From: Candidatus Omnitrophota bacterium
GTDB lineage: Bacteria > Omnitrophota > Omnitrophia > Omnitrophales > Aquincolibacteriaceae
Direction: 5' to 3'
Length of the DNA: 64,000 nucleotides
Assembly: GCA_043803685.1 (NCBI GenBank)
Contig: JAZDJU010000040.1
Location: 23,997 to 87,996 of the forward strand
Shown: one piece after another, positions 14,113-22,880 of the stretch
Numbering within the stretch: position 1 is the first letter of the stretch
Layout: each line of letters begins with the position of its first letter
The notes under the pieces: generated by a model
Seen by the model: the letters and a program-made list of their open reading frames with translations, nothing else
Databases searched by the model: none
What the model was told of the DNA's origin: nothing
Program-made: the position numbers and the translations under genes

Positions 14113-14571
14113 TCAACGGTAGGCGCTGCCGCCGTCGAAGACGATGGTGGTTTTGTTCAGACCCGAGAGGTCCGAATAATCCAAAGTGATCTCTTCTCCC
14201 TTATAGTAACCCTTCCACATGTAATGCTTGGCCCCGGGGCTAACTTCGCTGGGATTCCCGAAATCCCGTAGCAGTCTTTTCCTGATATCGTCACCGACGC
14301 GCGTCGTGTCCCAAGTGACCCGGATCTTGTTGAGTCTCAGGGCGTCGTTGAACATGAATTGCGCGACGCAGGGTTCGCCTCCGAGGAAAACGTCTGCCTC
14401 GATCATTTGCTTCGTCCGTGTAGAACGGATATCCCAGTCTTTCTTTTCCAGTTTTTCGAGGACGCTTGCCTTGCTGTCGCCCCAGTTATAGCCCTCCAGA
14501 CGAAAGGCCAGGGCGGACGGAGCTCCGAGGATGGCGGTCAGTAATACAGTCAGCAAGATCTTCTTAAGCAT
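14113..14571 (-). CDS. Hypothetical exported protein
   Basis: MLKKILLTVLLTAILGAPSALA signal peptide; GGAGG RBS. Confidence 0.65.
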   Translation of the reverse strand: MLKKILLTVLLTAILGAPSALAFRLEGYNWGDSKASVLEKLEKKDWDIRSTRTKQMIEADVFLGGEPCVAQFMFNDALRLNKIRVTWDTTRVGDDIRKRLLRDFGNPSEVSPGAKHYMWKGYYKGEEITLDYSDLSGLNKTTIVFDGGSAYR

Positions 14572-14737
14572 GGATAACCTCCTTGGAGTCCAATGTTCGA
14601 TATATGCATCGCCCTTTCGGAGTATAAATTGACAGCTGTTTTCACGAAAGTTCTCGGGAACGGCGGGACTCCTTATTTGACACGCTCCACCCATTCGGGC
14701 AGAATGTGACCGCTTTTAACCCGTTAGTAGAGGACTT

Positions 14738-14973
14738 GCCCCGTTAGAGATTGACGGGGGATATTTAAAGAATGGGTTTGCAGCAGGATGTGAAAATTTT
14801 TTTGATGGAATTTCTGACATAGACGGAAACGCTCTGGGCGTTTCCTATCTCTAAAAAGGGGTTCACCCCGTTAGAGATTCATTTATGGCTAGGGCGAAAT
14901 ATTTTAAAAGAGTTCCAGTCTAAACATGAAATACGGAAGAATTCAGAGCGTTTCCTATCTCTAACGGGGTGAA
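14738..14973. mobile_element. Two tandem MITE-like units with CCCCGTTAGAGAT terminal inverted repeats
   Basis: Perfect 17-bp TIR TTCACCCCGTTAGAGAT (14862) / ATCTCTAACGGGGTGAA (14957); upstream degenerate unit 14738-14862; both end GCGTTTCCTATCTCTAA. Confidence 0.7.
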
Positions 14974-14974
14974 T

Positions 14975-15256
14975 ATGGAATTCAATATTGAACGGGTCGC
15001 GGAACTCGCGCGGCTCAATCTGAAACCCGAAGAAAAGCAGAAGCTCGCCAAAGACCTTGGCGCCATTCTGACCTATGTTCAGAAGCTGGACGCCCTGGAC
15101 ACGAAAAATGTCGAGCCCACGAGCCACGTCCTTAATATGGAGAACGTGTTCCGCGCTGACGAGGTGAAACCCTCGGACGCCGCGACGAAGGCTCTGGAGC
15201 ACGCTCCGGAGACGGAAGGCCCTTTCTTTAAAGTTCCAAAAATTGTGAACAGATAA
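14975..15256 (+). CDS. gatC: Asp/Glu-tRNA amidotransferase subunit C
   Basis: VAELARL, VEPTSHV, NVFRADE, FFKVPKIV. Confidence 0.93.
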   Translation: MEFNIERVAELARLNLKPEEKQKLAKDLGAILTYVQKLDALDTKNVEPTSHVLNMENVFRADEVKPSDAATKALEHAPETEGPFFKVPKIVNR

Positions 15257-15283
15257 GCGTTAAGTGATAAGCGTTAGGCTAAA

Positions 15284-16714
15284 ATGAATACACCCCTGCA
15301 CCAACTGACAGTAAAAGAAGCGATTGAGTTCTGCCAAAAAGGCGGGGCCCGGGATCTCCTGCACGCCTTGACCGAACGGTCTCAAAAACTAAATCCCCGG
15401 GTAAATGCTTTTTTGCGGATGGGTGCCTCTGACAGCAACTTGCCGCTTTCTGCTGAACGCTTACCGCTCTCCGGCGTTCCCATCTCTATTAAAGACAACA
15501 TCTGTATCGACGGCGCGGAGGTGACTTGTGCTTCAAAGATCCTTGAAAAACACGTGCCGCCTTACGACGCGACCGTGATCACAAAACTTAAAAATGCCGG
15601 CGCAACACTTTTCGGCCAGTGCAACATGGACGAGTTCGCGTTCGGTTCCTCCTGCGAAACCTCGGCGTTCGGCCCGTGCCGGAACCCGTGGGACCTCGAG
15701 CGTGTACCGGGCGGTTCAAGCGGCGGCTCCGCGGCCTCGGTCGCGGCGGACATGACGGTTGCGGCGCTCGGCTCCGACACCGGAGGCTCCATTCGTCAGC
15801 CCGCGGCTCTTTGCGGCATTGTCGGCGTGAAACCCACGTACGGGCGCGTGTCACGTTATGGACTCATTGCCTTCGGTTCAAGCTTTGACCAGATCGGTCC
15901 TCTTACGAAGACCGTGGAGGACTCGGCTATTTTGTTGAATGTCCTGTGCGGCCACGACCCGAAGGACTCGACCTCGTCACCGGTGAAAGTTCCGGATTTT
16001 ACGCAGGCGCTCACGCGCGACGTGAAGGGCCTGAGGATCGGCTTGCCGAAAGAGTATTTCATTGAAGGGATCGATCCTGAGATCGAGAAAAGCGTGCTCC
16101 AGGCCGCGGAAACTTATAAGAAGCTCGGCGCCGAGATCAAAACCATCAGTCTGCCGCACACGGAGCACTCAGTCGCGGTCTACTATATTGTGGCCGTCGC
16201 GGAGGCGAGCTCGAACCTCGGCCGCTTTGACGGCGTGGAGTACGGCCTTCGCGTGCCGTCGAAGGACCTGCGCGAAATGTATTTCGAGACCCGCGACCGG
16301 GGATTCGGTCACGAAGCGAAGCGTCGCATTCTGCTCGGAACCTTTGTTCTCTCGGCGGGTTATTACGAGGCGTATTACCTGAAAGGGCAGAAGGTCCGCA
16401 CGCTCATTCGCCAGGATTTCGAACAGGCGTTCAAAGAAGTGGACGTCATCCTTTCGCCGACGTCGCCCACCGCGGCGTTCAAGATCGGCGAAAAGGTCTC
16501 GGATCCTATTGCCATGTACCTCTCGGATATTTTTACGATTCCCGCGAACCTGGCCGGGATTCCCGCGATGTCGGTGCCGTGCGGTTTCACCTCGGGCGGA
16601 CTTCCCATCGGCATGCAGCTCATGGCTCGTCCGTTCGACGAGTCCACCATGCTCCGCGCCGCCCACGCCTTCGAGCAGGAAGCCGGAATCTATAAGCTCA
16701 AACCCAAATTGTAG
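15284..16714 (+). CDS. gatA: Asp/Glu-tRNA amidotransferase subunit A
   Basis: IKDN, PGGSSGGSAA, GSDTGGSIRQPA amidase signature; EAKRRILLGT. Confidence 0.96.
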   Translation: MNTPLHQLTVKEAIEFCQKGGARDLLHALTERSQKLNPRVNAFLRMGASDSNLPLSAERLPLSGVPISIKDNICIDGAEVTCASKILEKHVPPYDATVITKLKNAGATLFGQCNMDEFAFGSSCETSAFGPCRNPWDLERVPGGSSGGSAASVAADMTVAALGSDTGGSIRQPAALCGIVGVKPTYGRVSRYGLIAFGSSFDQIGPLTKTVEDSAILLNVLCGHDPKDSTSSPVKVPDFTQALTRDVKGLRIGLPKEYFIEGIDPEIEKSVLQAAETYKKLGAEIKTISLPHTEHSVAVYYIVAVAEASSNLGRFDGVEYGLRVPSKDLREMYFETRDRGFGHEAKRRILLGTFVLSAGYYEAYYLKGQKVRTLIRQDFEQAFKEVDVILSPTSPTAAFKIGEKVSDPIAMYLSDIFTIPANLAGIPAMSVPCGFTSGGLPIGMQLMARPFDESTMLRAAHAFEQEAGIYKLKPKL

Positions 16715-16718
16715 GCGT

Positions 16719-16759
16719 TTGACAGGGTGGTTACTTGGTGCTACAATGTAGCTACATTG
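16719..16759 (+). promoter_or_regulatory. Sigma70 promoter and operator of TA pair
   Basis: TTGACA(16719)-N17-TACAAT(16742); perfect palindrome CAATGTAGCTACATTG 16744-16759. Confidence 0.8.
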
Positions 16760-16777
16760 GGTTAACCGGAGGAACTT

Positions 16778-17005
16778 ATGATAAAGCACCTAACGAGCCA
16801 CGGAAACAGTCTCGCCTTGATTATCGAAAAACCGGTGTTGCAGCTTTTGCGCATTACTGCCAAGACTCCGCTGGAGGTCAACACCGACGGTCGTAGTCTC
16901 ATTATTTCGCCTGTGAATGACGATGCCAGGGAAAAGAAATTTAATGCCGTCATGGAAAAGATCCACAAGCAGTACGCGACCACTTTCAAGGCGCTTGCGG
17001 ATTAA
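16778..17005 (+). CDS. AbrB/MazE-family antitoxin
   Basis: MIKHLTSHGNSLALIIEKP...FKALAD. Confidence 0.85.
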   Translation: MIKHLTSHGNSLALIIEKPVLQLLRITAKTPLEVNTDGRSLIISPVNDDAREKKFNAVMEKIHKQYATTFKALAD

Positions 17006-17010
17006 TAGCT

Positions 17011-17460
17011 GTGAAGCGCAAAACTAAAAAAACAAAATTCTCCGTTCGCGAAGAGGGCGCTGTTTATAGGCCTTCTGCCCCTGTTTTTTTGACGCACGAC
17101 GAGGTGTTGAAGCTACATGTCCGGCAAATTGAGCTTTTTGGCGGCACCGACGGCATTCGAGATATGGCGTTATTGCATTCGGCATTGGCTCAGCCAGAGG
17201 CGAGTTTTGGAGGACATTGGCTTCACAATGACATTTTTGAAATGGCCGCCGCTTATGCTTATCATATTTGCCAGAACCACCCGTTTTTTGATGGCAATAA
17301 GCGCACAGCCCTTGACGCGGCCCTGATGTTCCTAGGCACGAACGGAATCTTGTTCAAAGATCCTAAAGAGATCTTTATTGGCGTGATGCTTTCGGTCGCG
17401 AGAGGGAAGATGGGTAAAAAAGAGCTGGCGCAGATTTTTCGCGATCTGCCCCGGGAATAG
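17011..17460 (+). CDS. doc: Doc/Fic-family toxin (death-on-curing)
   Basis: FGGTDGIRD..LLHSALAQP; HPFFDGNKRTA motif. Confidence 0.88.
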   Translation: MKRKTKKTKFSVREEGAVYRPSAPVFLTHDEVLKLHVRQIELFGGTDGIRDMALLHSALAQPEASFGGHWLHNDIFEMAAAYAYHICQNHPFFDGNKRTALDAALMFLGTNGILFKDPKEIFIGVMLSVARGKMGKKELAQIFRDLPRE

Positions 17461-17484
17461 ACATTCGGGCGTGCGTCAGCAGCT

Positions 17485-17914
17485 GATTTTCCAGCGGGCT
17501 GGGAAATTGGGCAAGGGGGCGTAGATTTTTCCGGCGCCGGAAAAATTAGCAGCCAATTCATCGGCGGGCCGATGAATTGAGGCGAACAGAAGATTTATCG
17601 GACGTCCGACGAATTGAGGGGGCAAGGCCTCCCGGGTAGCTCGAGGCTTTATAGCTTAAAGGATATACAGCAAAACAGCCGCCAGCGGCTGAATTGACCA
17701 ACCGTGCGGCGAAGTTGTTAAGCAGAATGTACGTAAAACAAATGGGGAGCTAACCCCTCCCCACCGGACGCCGTCCGGTTTTCTCGCATGCGGGAAAATT
17801 GGAGCACTGAATTCATCGGCGGGCCGATGAATTGAGGGGGCAAGGCTTCCCGGGTAGTTCGAGGCCTCATATCATATATGATATGAGGCAAAAACGGGCG
17901 CGGGCGACTGAATT
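17485..17914. repeat. Array of eight 24-nt palindromes with two copies of a constant 32-nt linker
   Basis: 24-mers ending AATT at 17485, 17524, 17555, 17592, 17672, 17777, 17810, 17891; GAGGGGGCAAGGCYTCCCGGGTAGYTCGAGGC at 17616 and 17834. Confidence 0.85.
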
Positions 17915-17964
17915 GGCTGGTGAGATAATTCAAAATAATGAGAGAACCAAGGCGAGGTGGCGAT

Positions 17965-18456
17965 ATGCGTAGAATGACAGCGGGTCTGATCGCTTTTATG
18001 TTTCCGCTCATGTTGGGGACCACCTACATTGTCAGAGAGAATGGCAAAGAGGTAGGGACTTGGGTGGAGAAGGATGGAAGTGATGTTACTCGATATATCG
18101 ACAATACAGTGACCAAGACAGGATCGCAAGCTATCGCAGAGCAGCAGATTGTTACCTCCGGACGAGCTAAGGTCAGCGACGAGCAAGAGAGAATAGAAGG
18201 TGAAAAATACATGGAAAGGGAAGAGACCTTTGGTATTCGTGAGGGATTGACGCGAGCGCAACTTGAAAATATTTCCATGGAAAAAGGCCTGCTCCGAAAA
18301 ACAAAATATTCAGATAATGATACTTCCACAGGGGAAGGATTTTGGATCTTTGAGTATGTGACAGAAACAAAACATTACAAGCACCTTTTTAAGGTCTATC
18401 TAGAATCAAACTATTGGACGGTAAAGAAAGTTTTTCATAGCGTTGAAGAGCGGTGA
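17965..18456 (+). CDS. Hypothetical exported/membrane-anchored protein (ORFan-like)
   Basis: GAGGTGG RBS; hydrophobic N-terminus; AT-richer than flanks; bounded by repeat modules. Confidence 0.6.
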   Translation: MRRMTAGLIAFMFPLMLGTTYIVRENGKEVGTWVEKDGSDVTRYIDNTVTKTGSQAIAEQQIVTSGRAKVSDEQERIEGEKYMEREETFGIREGLTRAQLENISMEKGLLRKTKYSDNDTSTGEGFWIFEYVTETKHYKHLFKVYLESNYWTVKKVFHSVEER

Positions 18457-18492
18457 CAAATCCTGGCAGTGATTTAACCGGACGTGATTTTC

Positions 18493-18632
18493 AATTTTCC
18501 AGTGGGCTGAAGAATTTGTACTGAATTAGTCGGCGGGCCGACGAATTGAGGGGGCAAGGCCTCCCGGGCAGTTCGAGGCCTCATATCATATATGATATGA
18601 GGCGATTTAGTCGCTGGCGACCAAATTGACCA
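18493..18632. repeat. Third palindrome module (three 24-mers, 32-nt linker, 26-nt palindrome)
   Basis: 24-mers at 18493, 18524, 18604; linker 18548-18579; GCCTCATATCATATATGATATGAGGC 18578-18603 identical to 17864-17889. Confidence 0.85.
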
Positions 18633-18729
18633 GGAAATTATAGGCCCGAGACTTCGGTAAAAGGAAATACGTAGGGCGTCCAGTGGCAGGCCGCCTACTT
18701 TTGAACGCTAACACTGAGGAGAAAATCAG

Positions 18730-18912
18730 ATGAAAGAATATATTAATGGATTGGAGAAAGCGATAAACGACGAAAATGAACATCTTAACTTAATCAATCG
18801 ATGTGAAAAAAAGGGGATACAAGGCTTTGATTATGAGGTGTTGCGTCGTCGAATTAAAGAGAACATATCCTTGTATCAAAGGTTGAAAAAACAAACAGAG
18901 AGCTCCTCTTAA
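18730..18912 (+). CDS. Hypothetical protein (60 aa)
   Basis: GAGGAG RBS; AT-rich ORF just upstream of zinc-finger gene. Confidence 0.5.
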   Translation: MKEYINGLEKAINDENEHLNLINRCEKKGIQGFDYEVLRRRIKENISLYQRLKKQTESSS

Positions 18913-18920
18913 GGATCTTT

Positions 18921-19733
18921 ATGGGCTTATTTCTTTTTGATGCGTTTAAATGCTTTTACAGCGGGGGGGTTGGTCCATTTTCAGTTAGAACATTGCATGA
19001 TATCAAATCCTCTCGCTGTTGTTTATGTGGAAGTAAGGTTTACCCAACCGAGCTATTGGGGAATGCATGGATAAAGCAAAATGATGAATATAAAATCTTA
19101 TGCTATCGATGCAGAGGGCTAGAAGGTAAATTTAATAGCGCAAAATTGAGTGGAGAAGTAGTCCTTTCAACAGCAAAAGTGGCGGCAGAAATTATTCGTT
19201 CAAGGTGCCATAAATGCAATCGCAAGATAGATGCAAACTCTGTTATTCAAGGAATAAGGTCAGGCGGCTCACATGTAACAGTGCATTGCGAAGAATGCCA
19301 GTTTTGGCCTTTTCCGAACTCAACGAGATTTAGTTGCGGAGAATGTGGAGCTTTGAACACACATCGCGACGAGGGCAGCTGGGAGGATGAGAAATGCTGG
19401 AGTTGCAATCTATCACATAAAGAGCAATGGTTTTATAACTTGCCTTGCGAAGATGAAACCATGTATCTAGAAAAAGAATGTCCCAATTGCGATAGAGAAA
19501 ATCCTCAAAAAAATTGTTCCGTATGTAAGGGGGGTGGAATTTTAGTTGCGAGCCAAGAAATACCAGAATGGATTTCTTATCTAAAAAAGAAAAAAGGATA
19601 TACGCAAAAGAATTTAGCGATATTGTTAGATGCTTCCGAGGATTTAATAAATGATATCATGGCCAAAAAAGCAAAACTAACGCATGGCCAACTTCAGAAG
19701 CTATACGTCGATATTGAGAAAGAATCTTCTTAA
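18921..19733 (+). CDS. Multi-CxxC zinc-finger protein with C-terminal XRE-like HTH
   Basis: Eight CxxC motifs; C-terminal LKKKKGYTQKNLAILLDASEDLINDI. Confidence 0.65.
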   Translation: MGLFLFDAFKCFYSGGVGPFSVRTLHDIKSSRCCLCGSKVYPTELLGNAWIKQNDEYKILCYRCRGLEGKFNSAKLSGEVVLSTAKVAAEIIRSRCHKCNRKIDANSVIQGIRSGGSHVTVHCEECQFWPFPNSTRFSCGECGALNTHRDEGSWEDEKCWSCNLSHKEQWFYNLPCEDETMYLEKECPNCDRENPQKNCSVCKGGGILVASQEIPEWISYLKKKKGYTQKNLAILLDASEDLINDIMAKKAKLTHGQLQKLYVDIEKESS

Positions 19734-19829
19734 CCGTAGTAACGTTAATAGCCGAGCAGTGTTTGGCGAAGAGCAATAAAAAGGAATTTTGGCTATAGTC
19801 TGTGGTCTGCAGTCTAAGCGGAGCGAAAT

Positions 19830-21323
19830 ATGAATTACGAACCTGTGATTGGACTTGAGGTCCACGTACAACTGAAGACGAAGAGCAAGCTCTTCTGCTC
19901 ATGCTCCACGGAATTTGGGGCGGGGGGGAACGAGCATACGTGCCCGGTGTGTCTGGGGTGGCCGGGGTCGTTGCCGGTCTTAAACGAAGCGGCCTTGAAG
20001 CTCGGGATCCGCGTCGGGCTCGCGCTTAATTGCAAGGTGGCGGAGCGGCTCAAATTCGACCGGAAGAATTATTTCTATCCCGACCTTCCCAAGGCGTATC
20101 AGATCTCGCAATTCGACATGCCGGTGAATGGCAAAGGTTTCCTCGATATCGAAACGCGAGCCAAGAGCCAAGGGCCACGGGCCACGAAGAACGAAGAACA
20201 AAACGTGGGGCGTGGGTCGTGGGACGTGGAACGAAAGAGGATCGGTATCACTCGCGCGCACCTGGAAGAGGACGCGGGGAAGCTTCTCCATGAAGGCATC
20301 GCGGACGGGAGCCTCGTGGATTACAACCGTGGCGGCATTCCGCTCCTCGAGATCGTTTCCGAGCCGGACCTTGGCAGTCCGCAGGAGGCCTATGATTACC
20401 TCACGGCGCTCAAAGCCATTCTTCAATATCTGGAAGTGAGCGACTGCGATATGGAAAAGGGGAGCCTCCGCTGTGACGCGAACGTGTCGGTGCGCCCCGT
20501 GAGTCAGGCCAAGCTTGGCACGAAAGTCGAGATCAAGAATCTGAATTCCTTCAAGATGGTGCACAAAGCCATTCAGTATGAGATCGAACGCCAGACCGAG
20601 GCGCTCGAACGCGGGGAAACCATTGTTCAGGAAACGCGGCTCTGGAATGACGGGAAAGGCACGACCTTTTCCATGCGTTCCAAGGAAGAAGCGCACGATT
20701 ACCGTTATTTCCCGGAGCCGGACCTTGTGCCGTTCACGCTCACGCGCGAAACCGTGGAAGAGATCCGCAAGACGCTGCCCGAGCTGCCGCTTGAGCGCGC
20801 GAAACGGTTCATCAAAGAATTTGGCATTCCGGAATACGACGCCTACGTGCTCGTGCAGGAAAAGAAAGTCGCGGCCTATTTCGAATCGTGTGTGCGCGAA
20901 GGGGCCGCGGCAAAGTCCGCGAGCAATTGGATCCAAACCGAGCTTTTGGCGCTACTTAACGCGAAAAATATCGCGATCGACCAATGTCTGGTTTCACCGC
21001 ACGCGCTCGCGGGACTCATTCGTCTTGTCGAGAAAGGGACGCTGAGCGGCAAGACCGCGAAGGATGTGCTTCAGGAAATGGCGGCGACGGGCAAGGCTGC
21101 GGACACAATCGTTCAGGAAAAAGGACTTACGCAGGTCTCGGACACGGGGTTGATCGAGAAAGCGGTCGAGAAGGCCATTGCCGCGAACCCGACCGCTGTC
21201 GCGGAATTCAAGGCCGGGAAGCAGAAGGCCCTCGGCGCGCTCGTCGGCGCGGTGATGAAAGAGACCGGCGGCAAGGCGAACCCGAAAATCGTGAATGAAA
21301 TTTTGATGAAGAAGTTGTCCTAA
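19830..21323 (+). CDS. gatB: Asp/Glu-tRNA amidotransferase subunit B, with repeat-derived loop insertion
   Basis: VIGLEVHVQL, RKNYFYPDLPK, HLEEDAGK, YRYFPEPDL. Confidence 0.96.
   Translation: MNYEPVIGLEVHVQLKTKSKLFCSCSTEFGAGGNEHTCPVCLGWPGSLPVLNEAALKLGIRVGLALNCKVAERLKFDRKNYFYPDLPKAYQISQFDMPVNGKGFLDIETRAKSQGPRATKNEEQNVGRGSWDVERKRIGITRAHLEEDAGKLLHEGIADGSLVDYNRGGIPLLEIVSEPDLGSPQEAYDYLTALKAILQYLEVSDCDMEKGSLRCDANVSVRPVSQAKLGTKVEIKNLNSFKMVHKAIQYEIERQTEALERGETIVQETRLWNDGKGTTFSMRSKEEAHDYRYFPEPDLVPFTLTRETVEEIRKTLPELPLERAKRFIKEFGIPEYDAYVLVQEKKVAAYFESCVREGAAAKSASNWIQTELLALLNAKNIAIDQCLVSPHALAGLIRLVEKGTLSGKTAKDVLQEMAATGKAADTIVQEKGLTQVSDTGLIEKAVEKAIAANPTAVAEFKAGKQKALGALVGAVMKETGGKANPKIVNEILMKKLS
20155..20232. 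repeat. CCACG/CGTGG 7-nt-periodic hairpin inserted in frame in gatB
   Basis: CGCGAGC CAAGAGC CAAGGGC CACGGGC CACGAAG ... CGTGGGG CGTGGGT CGTGGGA CGTGGAA. Confidence 0.8.
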
Positions 21324-21331
21324 CTGCCGGG

Positions 21332-21390
21332 ACACGTGCCACGATCCACGCACCACGAAATCCGTTTTTCGCGCCCCGTGGCCCATGGGA
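21332..21390. repeat. CCACG/CGTGG 7-nt-periodic element
   Basis: ACACGTG CCACGAT CCACGCA CCACGAA ... CGTGGCC CATGGGA. Confidence 0.7.
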
Positions 21391-21425
21391 ATGACAAGCG
21401 TTCAGTCTAAAACGCGGGAGAGAAC

Positions 21426-21731
21426 ATGACGGTCGTATTTGCTCAGCTGACGATGGTTTTCGCGGGCCTTGTTTTTTTGATGCTCGCCGGGTCTTTTTTC
21501 GCGAGGATCCGAAATCCCCAGGGAGGGAAGAAGCCCATCGCTTTGTTCTGTCTGGTGGAGTTCATGATCTTTGTTTGCGCGGTCATGTTCCTGATCTTTC
21601 GTAATGGGACCTCTGAAAGCGTTACGGCGCTCTTGATGCCCGCTTTGGGTCTGACCTTGATCGTGAGCCTTCCGGTCCTCGCGATCGTTTGGGCGACACA
21701 GAAAACGCCGCAAGCGAAGAAGAAAAAATAA
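21426..21731 (+). CDS. Hypothetical membrane protein (3 TM)
   Basis: GGGAG RBS; three hydrophobic segments, basic tail. Confidence 0.6.
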   Translation: MTVVFAQLTMVFAGLVFLMLAGSFFARIRNPQGGKKPIALFCLVEFMIFVCAVMFLIFRNGTSESVTALLMPALGLTLIVSLPVLAIVWATQKTPQAKKKK

Positions 21732-21796
21732 CAGGATGACGGTAAGCCAGAGAGTGCCCATGAAGTTCTTCCTCAGAAAATATTCTAAATTCGGGG

Positions 21797-21868
21797 GCAC
21801 GTGCCATGAGCCACGGGCCACGAAAAACGGCTTTCGTGGTGCGTGGTACGTGGCACGTGGCACGCGTA
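21797..21868. repeat. CCACG/CGTGG 7-nt-periodic element
   Basis: GCACGTG CCATGAG CCACGGG CCACGAA ... CGTGGTG CGTGGTA CGTGGCA CGTGGCA. Confidence 0.8.
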
Positions 21869-21875
21869 GGTCAGC

Positions 21876-22880
21876 ATGCTGACCCTCGGCATCGAAACCT
21901 CGTGCGACGAAACGTCGTGCTCCATTCTTCGCGGTAAAGACACGCTTCTTTCGAACGTCGTTTCCTCCAGTCTTTTCCGGCATAAGCAATTCGGCGGCGT
22001 CGTGCCCGAGATCGCGTCCCGGCATTGCATGGAGCAGATCCAATGCGTGTTCGAGGAAGCGCTTCAGGAAGCCAAGATCAAACCCAAAGACCTTGATCTT
22101 ATTGCCGTAACGCAGGGACCGGGGCTCATTGGTTCACTGCTGGTCGGCGTCGCGTTCGCCAAGGCGCTCGCTTACCAACTCGAAATTCCTCTCGTAGGTG
22201 TGAATCATATGGAAGGTCATCTCGTCGCGAACTTTCTCGGGCAAAAGGAACCCAAACGTTACGTGGGGCTTCTCGTCTCGGGCGGGCACACGATGCTCAC
22301 CTTCTGCGAAAAAGGAAAGATCCATATCCTGGGCGAGACGGTGGACGACGCCGTGGGCGAAGCCTATGACAAGGTCGCGAAGATCATGGGACTCAGTTAT
22401 CCCGGTGGGCCCATGCTCGACAAACTCGCGCGGCAGGGGAATCCTCGCGCAGTCCCGTTCACGCGGCCCAAACAGGATGAGCGTTTCGGCTTCAGTTTCA
22501 GCGGCGTGAAAACAGCCGTACTTTACAAGATGAAAGACCCGAAGACGGGAGCGCCGCTTCCGGACGCGCCGTCCGTGAAAGACATGGTGGCGAGTTTCCA
22601 ACATGCCGCGATCGGCTGGCTCGTCGAGAAGACGCTTGACGCCGCGGAGTTCAAAAAAGTTTCCGATGTCGTGGTGGGCGGAGGCGTGAGCGCGAATTCC
22701 TGGCTCCGCGAAAAACTAACGCGGGACGCCGCGGCCAAAGGCATCAAAGTCTGGCTTCCGCCGTTCGTCCTGAGCACGGACAACGCCGCGATGATCGCAC
22801 GCCGCGGGTTCGAGCTTTATCAAAACGGGAAACGGTCGAAACTAAATATGACCGGAGATCCTGCGCTGCAAATAAAATAA
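21876..22880 (+). CDS. tsaD: tRNA N6-adenosine threonylcarbamoyltransferase
   Basis: LGIETSCDET, GGVVPEIASRH, VNHMEGH, SGGHT, TDNAAMI. Confidence 0.96.
   Translation: MLTLGIETSCDETSCSILRGKDTLLSNVVSSSLFRHKQFGGVVPEIASRHCMEQIQCVFEEALQEAKIKPKDLDLIAVTQGPGLIGSLLVGVAFAKALAYQLEIPLVGVNHMEGHLVANFLGQKEPKRYVGLLVSGGHTMLTFCEKGKIHILGETVDDAVGEAYDKVAKIMGLSYPGGPMLDKLARQGNPRAVPFTRPKQDERFGFSFSGVKTAVLYKMKDPKTGAPLPDAPSVKDMVASFQHAAIGWLVEKTLDAAEFKKVSDVVVGGGVSANSWLREKLTRDAAAKGIKVWLPPFVLSTDNAAMIARRGFELYQNGKRSKLNMTGDPALQIK

Follow-up and report, generated by a model that had tools for sequence, protein, structure and literature searches.

A mosaic of 24-bp palindromes between gatA and gatB in an Omnitrophota genome and its apparent source within DUF1016_N+SNase nuclease genes

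The DNA analysed here, which we call the window, is a 64,000-nt stretch of the metagenome-assembled genome (MAG) of an uncultured Omnitrophota bacterium (G000:C40:23997-87996; G### denotes genomes, C## their contigs and L### sequences or loci retrieved for comparison). Between gatA and gatB, at positions 17485-18632, the window carries an array of eleven 24-nt units of the form RATT-N16-AATT, all with the AATT end. Sequence comparison identified these units as copies of a palindrome that sits at a fixed site in multi-copy genes combining a DUF1016 N-terminal domain with a staphylococcal-nuclease domain (DUF1016_N+SNase). The explanation that we tentatively favour, while giving it somewhat less than an even chance, is that the array is an intergenic mosaic of the kind known from Neisseria and Escherichia coli, composed of secondary copies of the nuclease cis palindrome and marking a break-and-join hotspot.

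Array units match palindromes within nuclease genes

A first-pass annotation of the window had described the eleven units together with linkers, modules and AT-rich palindromes, all of which we found where it had placed them. Nine of the units have 9–11 of 12 Watson–Crick (WC) pairs; those at 18493 (8 pairs) and 17891 (~7) are weaker. Its account needs correction for the units at 17672 and 17891, which are degenerate. The genome (2.89 Mb in 133 contigs, 91% complete, 52% GC) contains 165 xATT-N16-AATT sites. Seventeen of these have at least 6 of 8 inner WC pairs, whereas random re-pairing of the halves gives an expectation of 1.5, and 7 of the 17 lie within the 1.15-kb array. Beyond the array there are about ten more AATT-type palindromes, most of them within long open reading frames (ORFs), and three occupy identical codons of paralogous DUF1016_N+SNase genes.

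Consistent with the array units being copies of the palindrome at this site, we identified close matches to individual genes. The stretch 17486-17511, which overlaps unit 1, matches the palindrome of the nuclease gene on G000 C74 as its reverse complement in 26 of 26 positions. Unit 4 agrees in 24 of 24 positions with nuclease gene L030 of G012 and is identical to L134; unit 3, read by eye, is the exact reverse complement of the L148 palindrome; and unit 6 has a 23/25 antisense match to G000 C116. When 38 distinct units from eight genomes were compared with 88 gene palindromes, agreement reached 24/24 in 5 units, at least 23 in 8 and at least 22 in 16, whereas 300 column shuffles of the palindromes gave means of 0.24, 1.17 and 5.29 and maxima of 2, 4 and 12, respectively. 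Some array spacers (GGATAAGCAGCA) also resemble, in reverse complement, the 5′ flank of the genes, GCTTATCC.

The annotation’s suggestion of a ‘library’ was thus apt, as the units are palindromes each belonging to a different DUF1016_N+SNase gene. The fixed length and covarying arms that it had noted are accounted for by descent from a gene-internal palindrome and not by a chemistry of capture at the array. It had also proposed to compare the 24-mers with phage and plasmid sequence; we rejected phage targets, as one generic palindrome pattern run against 2.9 million viral contigs returned a single imperfect match, in an unrelated ORF.

A constrained palindrome at fixed codons of DUF1016_N+SNase genes

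At E ≤ 1e-10, the nuclease family is present in 70 of 201 sampled genomes of the phylum, with 10–12 matches each in G000, G012 and G117. The palindrome site consists of 24 nt encoding Y-P-[I-x6-L]-S-W, and its stem is different in each gene. All 30 homologues fetched from genomes have 7–12 of 12 WC pairs at the site (29 have at least 9). Metagenome contigs supplied 61 distinct homologues, of which 59 have at least 9 pairs and 18 are perfect. Pooled, every one of the 91 distinct genes read carries a 24-bp palindrome at the same codons, 88 with at least 9 of 12 WC pairs, and there are 88 distinct versions. In the seven such paralogues of G000 itself, 9–11 pairs are formed, compared with only 6–7 at the equivalent place of the three canonical YhcG-type genes of this genome.

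We examined the mismatches for signs of the level at which the palindrome is constrained. Across the inner ten pairs of 37 distinct genes there are 348 WC pairs, 8 G-T, 8 A-C and 6 others, and the 61 metagenome genes show 20 G-T and 16 A-C. In an mRNA hairpin, G-U would be expected to outnumber A-C on the sense strand, so these symmetric mismatches argue for a constraint on the DNA, and we infer that the in-gene palindrome is a DNA-level site rather than an mRNA hairpin. Among 86 genes, identity of the palindrome core follows that of the flanks: flank identities of 0.80–0.90, 0.75–0.80 and 0.70–0.75 go with core identities of 0.91, 0.85 and 0.70, and no pair of genes with flanks of at least 0.75 has a core below 0.5. 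The palindromes thus co-diverge with their genes, which argues against frequent switching; compensatory changes maintain the pairing even as the encoded peptide drifts.

In an AlphaFold model (mean predicted local distance difference test score, pLDDT, 77.9), the encoded residues 149–157 lie between two helices and residues 152–154 have a pLDDT below 50; the palindrome is thus predicted to encode a tolerant, low-confidence surface loop. Comparisons of sequence and of fold both match the C-terminal domain to thermonuclease, and the SNase catalytic-type residues are invariant, so that the family is likely an active nuclease. In PADLOC, the DUF1016_N domain has a match to the defence candidate PDC-S02 (E 2.1e-25); its fold had no solved-structure match by sequence or by structure comparison, in which the SNase domain alone was matched.

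The surroundings of the nuclease genes hold few further palindromes. Within 1.5 kb of the genes (up to 110 loci) there is no second copy of a gene’s own palindrome, and a second AATT-type palindrome of any kind lies near the gene at 5 loci, none of them matching the gene’s own. Two nuclease genes of G000 have the 24-nt palindrome AGACCGGGTTCTAGAACCGGGTCT, a member of a six-member family of 24-mers with a GTCT end, 70–180 nt downstream (C74:5697 and C31:24626). The genes on C74, C31 and C129 have in common a motif, CATCACTTAATT(AG), 50–100 nt before the start codon, which may be a shared regulatory element of the family.

Palindromes in housekeeping genes

We observed palindromes of this kind in several housekeeping genes as well. 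In trpB, 4 of 19 orthologues carry one at the same codons with the length of the gene unchanged, and three different palindromes are represented: one in G000, one in G003 and one in G012 together with G018. The other 15 orthologues have an IVKAAGRL-like sequence with 4–6 pairs there. The 27-nt trpB block is 37–59% identical to that of the non-palindromic orthologues, and its flanks are 69–84% identical. In glpD, a full unit (11 of 12 pairs) occurs in 1 of 17 orthologues, that of G000 alone, and partial ones occur in three species. These comparisons indicate that palindromes overwrote short stretches of trpB and glpD.

In valS, the palindromes have instead enlarged part of the gene: two units of G012 lie in a segment that exceeds its counterpart in most orthologues by about 10 codons, and the first has flanks, TATCC and GAG, in common with the nuclease genes. 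At the same valS loop, G019 and G009 (L229 and L230) have an insertion of a second palindrome family, CCTGCCTGCCGGCAGGCAGG-like, which we also saw in the gat-gap module of G016 (L037, gap offset ~617). The case of ileS is ambiguous. Seven of 18 orthologues are palindromic (six with at least 9 WC pairs, one with 8 WC and 3 G-T), with at least three sequence types and G-T intermediates, and gradual compensatory change fits them as well as copying does, given an ancestral sequence that was already a quasi-palindrome.

The gatA–gatB gap varies across the genus

All 20 genomes of the genus, G000 included, have a gatA orthologue. The readable gaps between gatA and gatB in this genus measure 0, 0, ~110, 195, 430, 455, 840, 1096, 1226 and 1278 nt, and further ones measure ~1.9, 2.0, 2.1 and 3.1 kb. 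At 16 loci from other genera of the family, six gaps are 0–21 nt long and the rest at least 270 nt, extending to more than 1500 nt. At least two RATT-N16-AATT units are present in 8 of 17 readable genus gaps (G000, G001, G002, G004, G007, G008, G012 and G016), and the stems of these units are always different. Two of the 16 other-genus loci have AATT-type units, the gap of G028 holding at least two.

The gap cargo likewise differs between species of the genus. The antitoxin–Doc pair of G000 is also found in the gaps of G006 and G008, a 330-aa Doc/Fic-like protein in those of G012 and G004, a small two-gene pair in those of G016, G009 and G004, a small cysteine-rich protein in those of G014 and G011 and a larger ORF in that of G005; several gaps hold AT-rich orphan ORFs (cargo labels were read from the ORFs and not from a family search, the antitoxin/Doc and Doc-like matches being supported by tblastn). 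The cassette hotspot that the first-pass annotation had suspected is borne out by these comparisons, which identify the gatA–gatB gap as an insertion hotspot across the genus, 0 to ~3.1 kb long and filled with different cargo. The alternative it had named, a one-off duplication with fixed cargo, disagrees with the varying cargo and with the diverged modules found in relatives (see below).

Nuclease genes tend to be more numerous where arrays are present. The eight genomes with arrays have 10, 1, 5, 10, 11, 6, 5 and 2 nuclease matches and those without have 0, 0, 1, 1, 2, 1, 1, 5 and 9, a link that is only suggestive because the relatives are not independent.

Several minor features mark the gap. 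Where the cargo ends on the right, just upstream of the point where the true gatB starts, a duplicated 5′ fragment of gatB is present in G016 (L037:2010-2084; 25 codons, 100% identical) and G004 (L038), and looks like the scar of an insertion at the gatB start. A TAGAC/TATAG-rich motif, such as TTAGACTAGAGACTACAGACC, lies in the first ~40 nt after gatA in L037, L039, L008 and L014; in G000 it stands inverted just before gatB (window 19790-19818), a hint of either an inversion or inverted repeats bordering the gap. At L034 (G012:C2:28149-28192), two AATT-type units (…CGAACGATTGTCGCG…) share 4 nt and so have a 20-nt period, the pattern expected if an N16+AATT piece had inserted into an AATT/GATT site.

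Linker, modules and AT-rich palindrome

Three 108-nt modules begin at 17593, 17811 and 18525 of the window and are 69–76% alike. Each contains the same 32-nt linker, present in three copies without a mismatch where shuffled sequences gave an expectation of 0.00. The exact linker has no further copy in the rest of G000, in 60 relatives or in metagenome contigs. The linker search in relatives that the first-pass annotation had proposed thus had a mixed outcome, the exact 32-mer being unique to G000 but G012, G016 and G007 having diverged homologues of the whole module. In these homologues a palindrome is followed by a linker approximating GGGCAAGGCgGTTCrGGCAGcTCGgGg, then by an AT-rich segment and finally by a terminator-like palindrome. 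Hence the module is old and was copied locally in G000 to give the identical 32-mers. Among species-representative genomes there was one doubtful match to the start of the linker, 25 of 26 nt on a Bacillota MAG contig (L004:832-853); it is intergenic, every other part of the module is absent there, palindromes included, and it is probably due to chance.

The core of the AT-rich palindrome also occurs directly upstream of a ribosome-binding site and start codon at predicted helix-turn-helix (HTH) genes on C31 and C117, one of which lies just downstream of a nuclease gene (the HTH label, for small XRE-type genes, is a reading of the translation and not a family search). Such palindromes, for example TATATCATATATGATATA and TATAGCTTATAAGCTATA, are located at G000 C31:29837, C31:30123, C31:156751, C117:15892 and C117:16153. 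This placement suggests a promoter or operator element. In the explanation that we favour, linker and AT-rich palindrome would be a separate promoter-like repeat travelling with the cargo.

No recombinase or HUH nuclease, for which the first-pass annotation had proposed to look, accompanies the linker. Three Y1_Tnp genes lie elsewhere in G000, and there is no near-perfect palindrome of 20–30 nt within 1.2 kb of them.

Comparison with known repeat systems

By analogy, the closest known architecture is that of the Neisseria intergenic mosaic elements (NIMEs), with the repetitive extragenic palindromic sequences and bacterial interspersed mosaic elements (REP/BIME) also close. The dRS3 unit of NIMEs is ATTCCC-N8-GGGAAT, 20 bp long with conserved ends and variable cores, and flanks RS elements of 50–150 bp; NIMEs are present in hundreds of copies in Neisseria, their intergenic arrays vary between strains and adjoin variable genes, and their inverted repeats have been proposed as recombinase sites (PMC1797815). 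The window shares with them short inverted-repeat units with conserved ends and variable cores, arrays interspersed with other repeats, and adjoining variable genes. In contrast to NIMEs, the whole 24 bp is palindromic here, there are tens of copies per genome, the arrays are nearly confined to one spacer, the units are traceable to a site inside nuclease genes, no recombinase was identified and the phylum is another. The dRS3 pattern occurs 4 times in G000 and the Neisseria uptake sequence 3 times per strand, which is not enriched; we therefore rejected identity with NIMEs and regard the likeness as architectural only.

REP/BIME units are imperfect palindromes of 20–40 bp, clustered between cistrons with other conserved motifs (PMC3733652, PMC4690160). 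Palindrome clusters between cistrons combined with other motifs are likewise found here. The units differ in having the form G/A-ATT...AATT with no GTAG/CGTC tag, in their low copy number (17 palindromic sites in 2.89 Mb, most of those outside the array inside ORFs) and in occurring also within coding genes. Given the low copy number, the missing tag and Y1 genes that are not flanked by repeats, we rejected REP/BIME with a REP-associated tyrosine transposase (RAYT). No IS110-type transposase was found in G000, and its one reverse transcriptase gene shows no link to the array.

Palindromes inside proteins also have a counterpart. Rickettsia palindromic elements have been reported from protein-coding genes (Ogata 2000, 2002, as cited in PMC4316617). 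These elements are insertions of 100–150 bp. They and the palindromes described here are alike as palindromic repeats in frame in housekeeping genes, tolerated in surface regions of the protein. Here, by contrast, a 24-bp block takes the place of as many bases in trpB and glpD, and in valS about 10 codons are added.

In type III toxin–antitoxin loci, an endoRNase toxin gene is directly preceded by tandem repeats that are nearly identical. We rejected an RNA array of this kind, as the units of the window vary in sequence and the toxin beside them, Doc, is paired with an antitoxin-like protein.

In an open-access, full-text search of the literature, we found no description of a palindrome or hairpin in DUF1016/YhcG genes, nor of such repeats in Omnitrophota. 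By that search, the mosaic is akin to those of Neisseria and E. coli, but the source of its units is newly described. REP/BIME and NIME mosaics have been known for decades with an unclear source of their units; with units traceable to a site in a specific gene family, the building of such arrays becomes testable. The site itself is under a strong, unexplained constraint in an uncharacterised multi-copy nuclease family whose N-terminal domain matches a family that is a candidate for phage defence. Short palindromes that can overwrite parts of essential genes (trpB, glpD) and enlarge valS would also be a small-scale counterpart of the Rickettsia protein-coding palindromes. Should the nuclease prove to act on the palindrome in its own gene, structure- or sequence-specific DNA reagents could be obtained from the family.

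Origin of the array

The mosaic that we tentatively favour would have arisen as follows. The home of the palindrome would be the fixed site in the multi-copy DUF1016_N+SNase genes, where it would work in cis at the level of DNA, whether by extruding as a hairpin or cruciform or by offering a two-fold-symmetric binding site. Either the nuclease family or the repair machinery of the host, at work on the structures, would break and rejoin DNA at palindromes, and this would copy palindromes and bring in cargo. Copies with 0–8 nt of flank would consequently pile up in tandem in the gatA–gatB spacer, where insertions are tolerated and where the array would have been built up; housekeeping genes would occasionally be overwritten in short stretches; and foreign cargo, such as the toxin–antitoxin pair and orphan ORFs, would be gained and lost beside the units.

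Several observations weigh against this explanation. Flanks of array units agree with those of the genes by only 0–8 nt, and most G000 units match genes of other species, with no cognate gene resident in G000. The nuclease genes have no conserved neighbours, standing solitary among unrelated housekeeping genes, and no terminal repeats, and none lies in any gat gap read. The ileS palindromes, with their quasi-palindromic ancestor, are explained as well by gradual compensatory change as by copying. Finally, the array units are strand-asymmetric, with GG at the centre in 10 and CC in 1 and with 31 G-T against 6 A-C, which is not predicted for a purely DNA-level relic; related species’ arrays may be homologous, so these counts are not of independent observations.

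That asymmetry speaks for hairpins in the gatCAB transcript – REP-like stabilisers, processing signals or insulators, with the likeness to gene palindromes secondary. Also in line with RNA hairpins, every ORF of the island between gatA and gatB lies on the strand of the gat operon, and the plus strand folds better than the minus strand (−65 vs −46.7 and −53.8 vs −49 kcal/mol). The outermost G...T accounts, however, for 18 of the array G-T pairs, without which the bias is only 13:6, and in the nuclease genes the mismatches are symmetric (8:8 and 20:16). Units are lost or replaced between close species, yet gatB expression is needed in all of them, and Rfam 15 contains no matching family (the best of 4 weak matches scores 21.9 bits against a gathering score of 45). 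We consider the RNA explanation unlikely. More room is left for a reading in which the array holds decoy or regulatory sites, although it too seems to us rather improbable: each paralogue would bind its own palindrome, for example in self-regulation, and the array would titrate or buffer potentially toxic nucleases or let them govern the expression of cargo and gatB. Units equal gene palindromes far more often than shuffled ones do, symmetric mismatches fit a two-fold-symmetric protein site, and the PDC-S02 match together with the invariant catalytic-type residues makes a need to restrain the protein plausible. Such binding is harder to reconcile with units that mostly lack a resident cognate gene, with the lack of a second own-palindrome copy within 1.5 kb of any nuclease gene, with sites that differ at nearly every inner position, so that each paralogue would need its own specificity, and with the fast turnover of arrays even between the closest species.

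More novel, and in our view rather doubtful, is the idea that the nucleases, together with the palindromes in their genes, make up a selfish or defence-linked system of a kind not recognised before. The target of the nuclease would be a hairpin or cruciform of DNA lying within its own gene; short fragments with the palindrome, generated there, would be re-inserted elsewhere, building ordered arrays at a tolerated chromosomal spacer and occasionally rewriting loops of essential proteins; and the arrays would be a record of past and present nuclease lineages. Gene A of phiX174 and repC of pT181 contain nick or origin hairpins inside the gene of the protein that acts on them. They resemble the nuclease genes in having a cis-acting DNA structure within the coding sequence of a nuclease-type protein, differing between relatives; the differences are that the fold here is SNase and not HUH, that there is no replicon and that action of the protein on the site is only putative. 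Alternatively, the array could store silent 8-codon cassettes copied into nuclease genes to change a specificity loop, as in pilS/pilE or vls. It does hold palindromes absent from the resident genes, and the encoded loop is highly variable between paralogues and on the predicted surface, but core identity that tracks flank identity across 86 genes argues against frequent switching, and we think such a library very unlikely. An integron-like attC or CRISPR-like array is the least probable of all and close to dismissed. Integron cassette arrays have one attC of ~57–141 nt per cassette, with RYYYAAC and GTTRRRY boxes, and clusters of attC sites lacking integron-integrases (CALIN) do not require IntI. 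Like attC sites, the units have conserved ends and variable stems, lie beside variable cassettes and would be recognised by the structure into which they fold. The anatomy differs, with 24-nt units, RATT/AATT ends and three to six units in tandem without ORFs between them, on which grounds we rejected attC; a Pfam search of the 11 ORFs at 14113-22880 found no integrase domain, no genome-wide search having been run. A CRISPR array was rejected because the units differ, there is no constant repeat and the spacers between units are only 7–15 nt long. The array is thus neither CRISPR nor canonical attC, as the first-pass annotation had also concluded.

The gat locus and its cargo

Pfam confirmed the identities of GatC, GatA and GatB. 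The island between gatA and gatB is ~3.1 kb long, with a GC content of 0.36–0.54 against 0.55–0.60 in the flanking genes. It runs from a promoter-like site through antitoxin and Doc toxin to the palindrome array, and includes three family-less ORFs (Table 1).

Table 1. Features of the gatA–gatB region, in window coordinates
Feature	Position	Strand	Evidence or remark
gatC	14969..15256	+	Pfam GatC, E 3.4e-23
gatA, left border of variable gap	15284..16714	+	Pfam Amidase, E 2.3e-156
Promoter-like site before toxin–antitoxin pair	16719..16747	+	TTGACA-17-TACAAT, 11/12 matches, TG present
Doc-partner-like antitoxin, cargo	16778..17005	+	NCBIfam TIGR02609, E 2.8e-07, under curated cut-off
Doc/Fic toxin, cargo	17011..17460	+	Pfam Fic, E 5.7e-18; TIGR01550, E 5.7e-19
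Unit 1	17485..17508	.	9/12 WC
Unit 2	17524..17547	.	11/12 WC; best gene match 19/24 among 37 genome-derived genes
Unit 3, sequence identical to unit 7	17555..17578	.	11/12 WC; 23/24 to genes L093, L106
Unit 4, first 24-mer of module 1	17592..17615	.	9/12 WC
Linker copy 1	17616..17647	+	exact pattern match
Degenerate AT-rich segment, module 1	17648..17671	.	aligns with AT-rich segments of L008, L036 modules
Unit 5, degenerate	17672..17695	.	9/12 WC; minus-strand terminator-like hairpin 17691-17676 (terminator scan)
Two small GC hairpins, TTTT after second	17749..17783	+	
Unit 6	17777..17800	.	9 WC + 3 G-T (counted by eye); 22/24 to gene L108
Unit 7, first 24-mer of module 2	17810..17833	.	11/12 WC
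Linker copy 2	17834..17865	+	exact pattern match
AT-rich palindrome, copy 1	17864-17889	.	perfect, 26 nt (13+13), GCCTCATATCATATATGATATGAGGC
Unit 8, degenerate	17891..17914	.	~7 WC + 1 G-T (counted by eye)
Cargo ORF, 163 aa, near-orphan, between modules 2 and 3	17965..18456	+	
Unit 9	18493..18516	.	8 WC, 2 G-T; 20/24 to reverse complement of C74 gene palindrome
Unit 10, first 24-mer of module 3	18524..18547	.	10/12 WC
Linker copy 3	18548..18579	+	exact pattern match
AT-rich palindrome, copy 2	18578-18603	.	perfect, 26 nt (13+13), GCCTCATATCATATATGATATGAGGC
Unit 11	18604..18627	.	9/12 WC
Cargo ORF, 60 aa, AT-rich	18730..18912	+	GC 0.39-0.44; no family (Pfam, NCBIfam, PADLOC)
Cargo ORF, 270 aa	18921..19733	+	weak zinc-ribbon hint, Pfam E 0.0057, under cut-off
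gatB, right border of variable gap	19830..21323	+	Pfam GatB_N, E 1.9e-119

The 163-aa ORF, which had been called an ORFan on first inspection, is a near-orphan: at E ≤ 1e-3 it has only 4 relatives beyond the window’s own copy, and it has no Pfam, NCBIfam or PADLOC family. The position homologous to unit 5 in L036 and L037 reads AAAACAGTCGGCGCCGACTGTTTT, and the unit at 17672 and these relatives look like bidirectional terminators. The pair of small GC hairpins at 17749..17783 has a 35-nt match of 91% to G000 C31:29546-29512, and the hairpin CCGGACGCCGTCCGG recurs on C10 and C98.

A sequence-word lookup in sequencing runs returned two DNA runs with small shares (0.08 and 0.06) and listed no RNA run. 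Protein-atlas clusters of one protein of G000 are, like the genome itself, mostly assigned to Omnitrophota. The commonest 10-mers of G000 contain GATC, for example GATCNNGATC and GATCTTTTTC.

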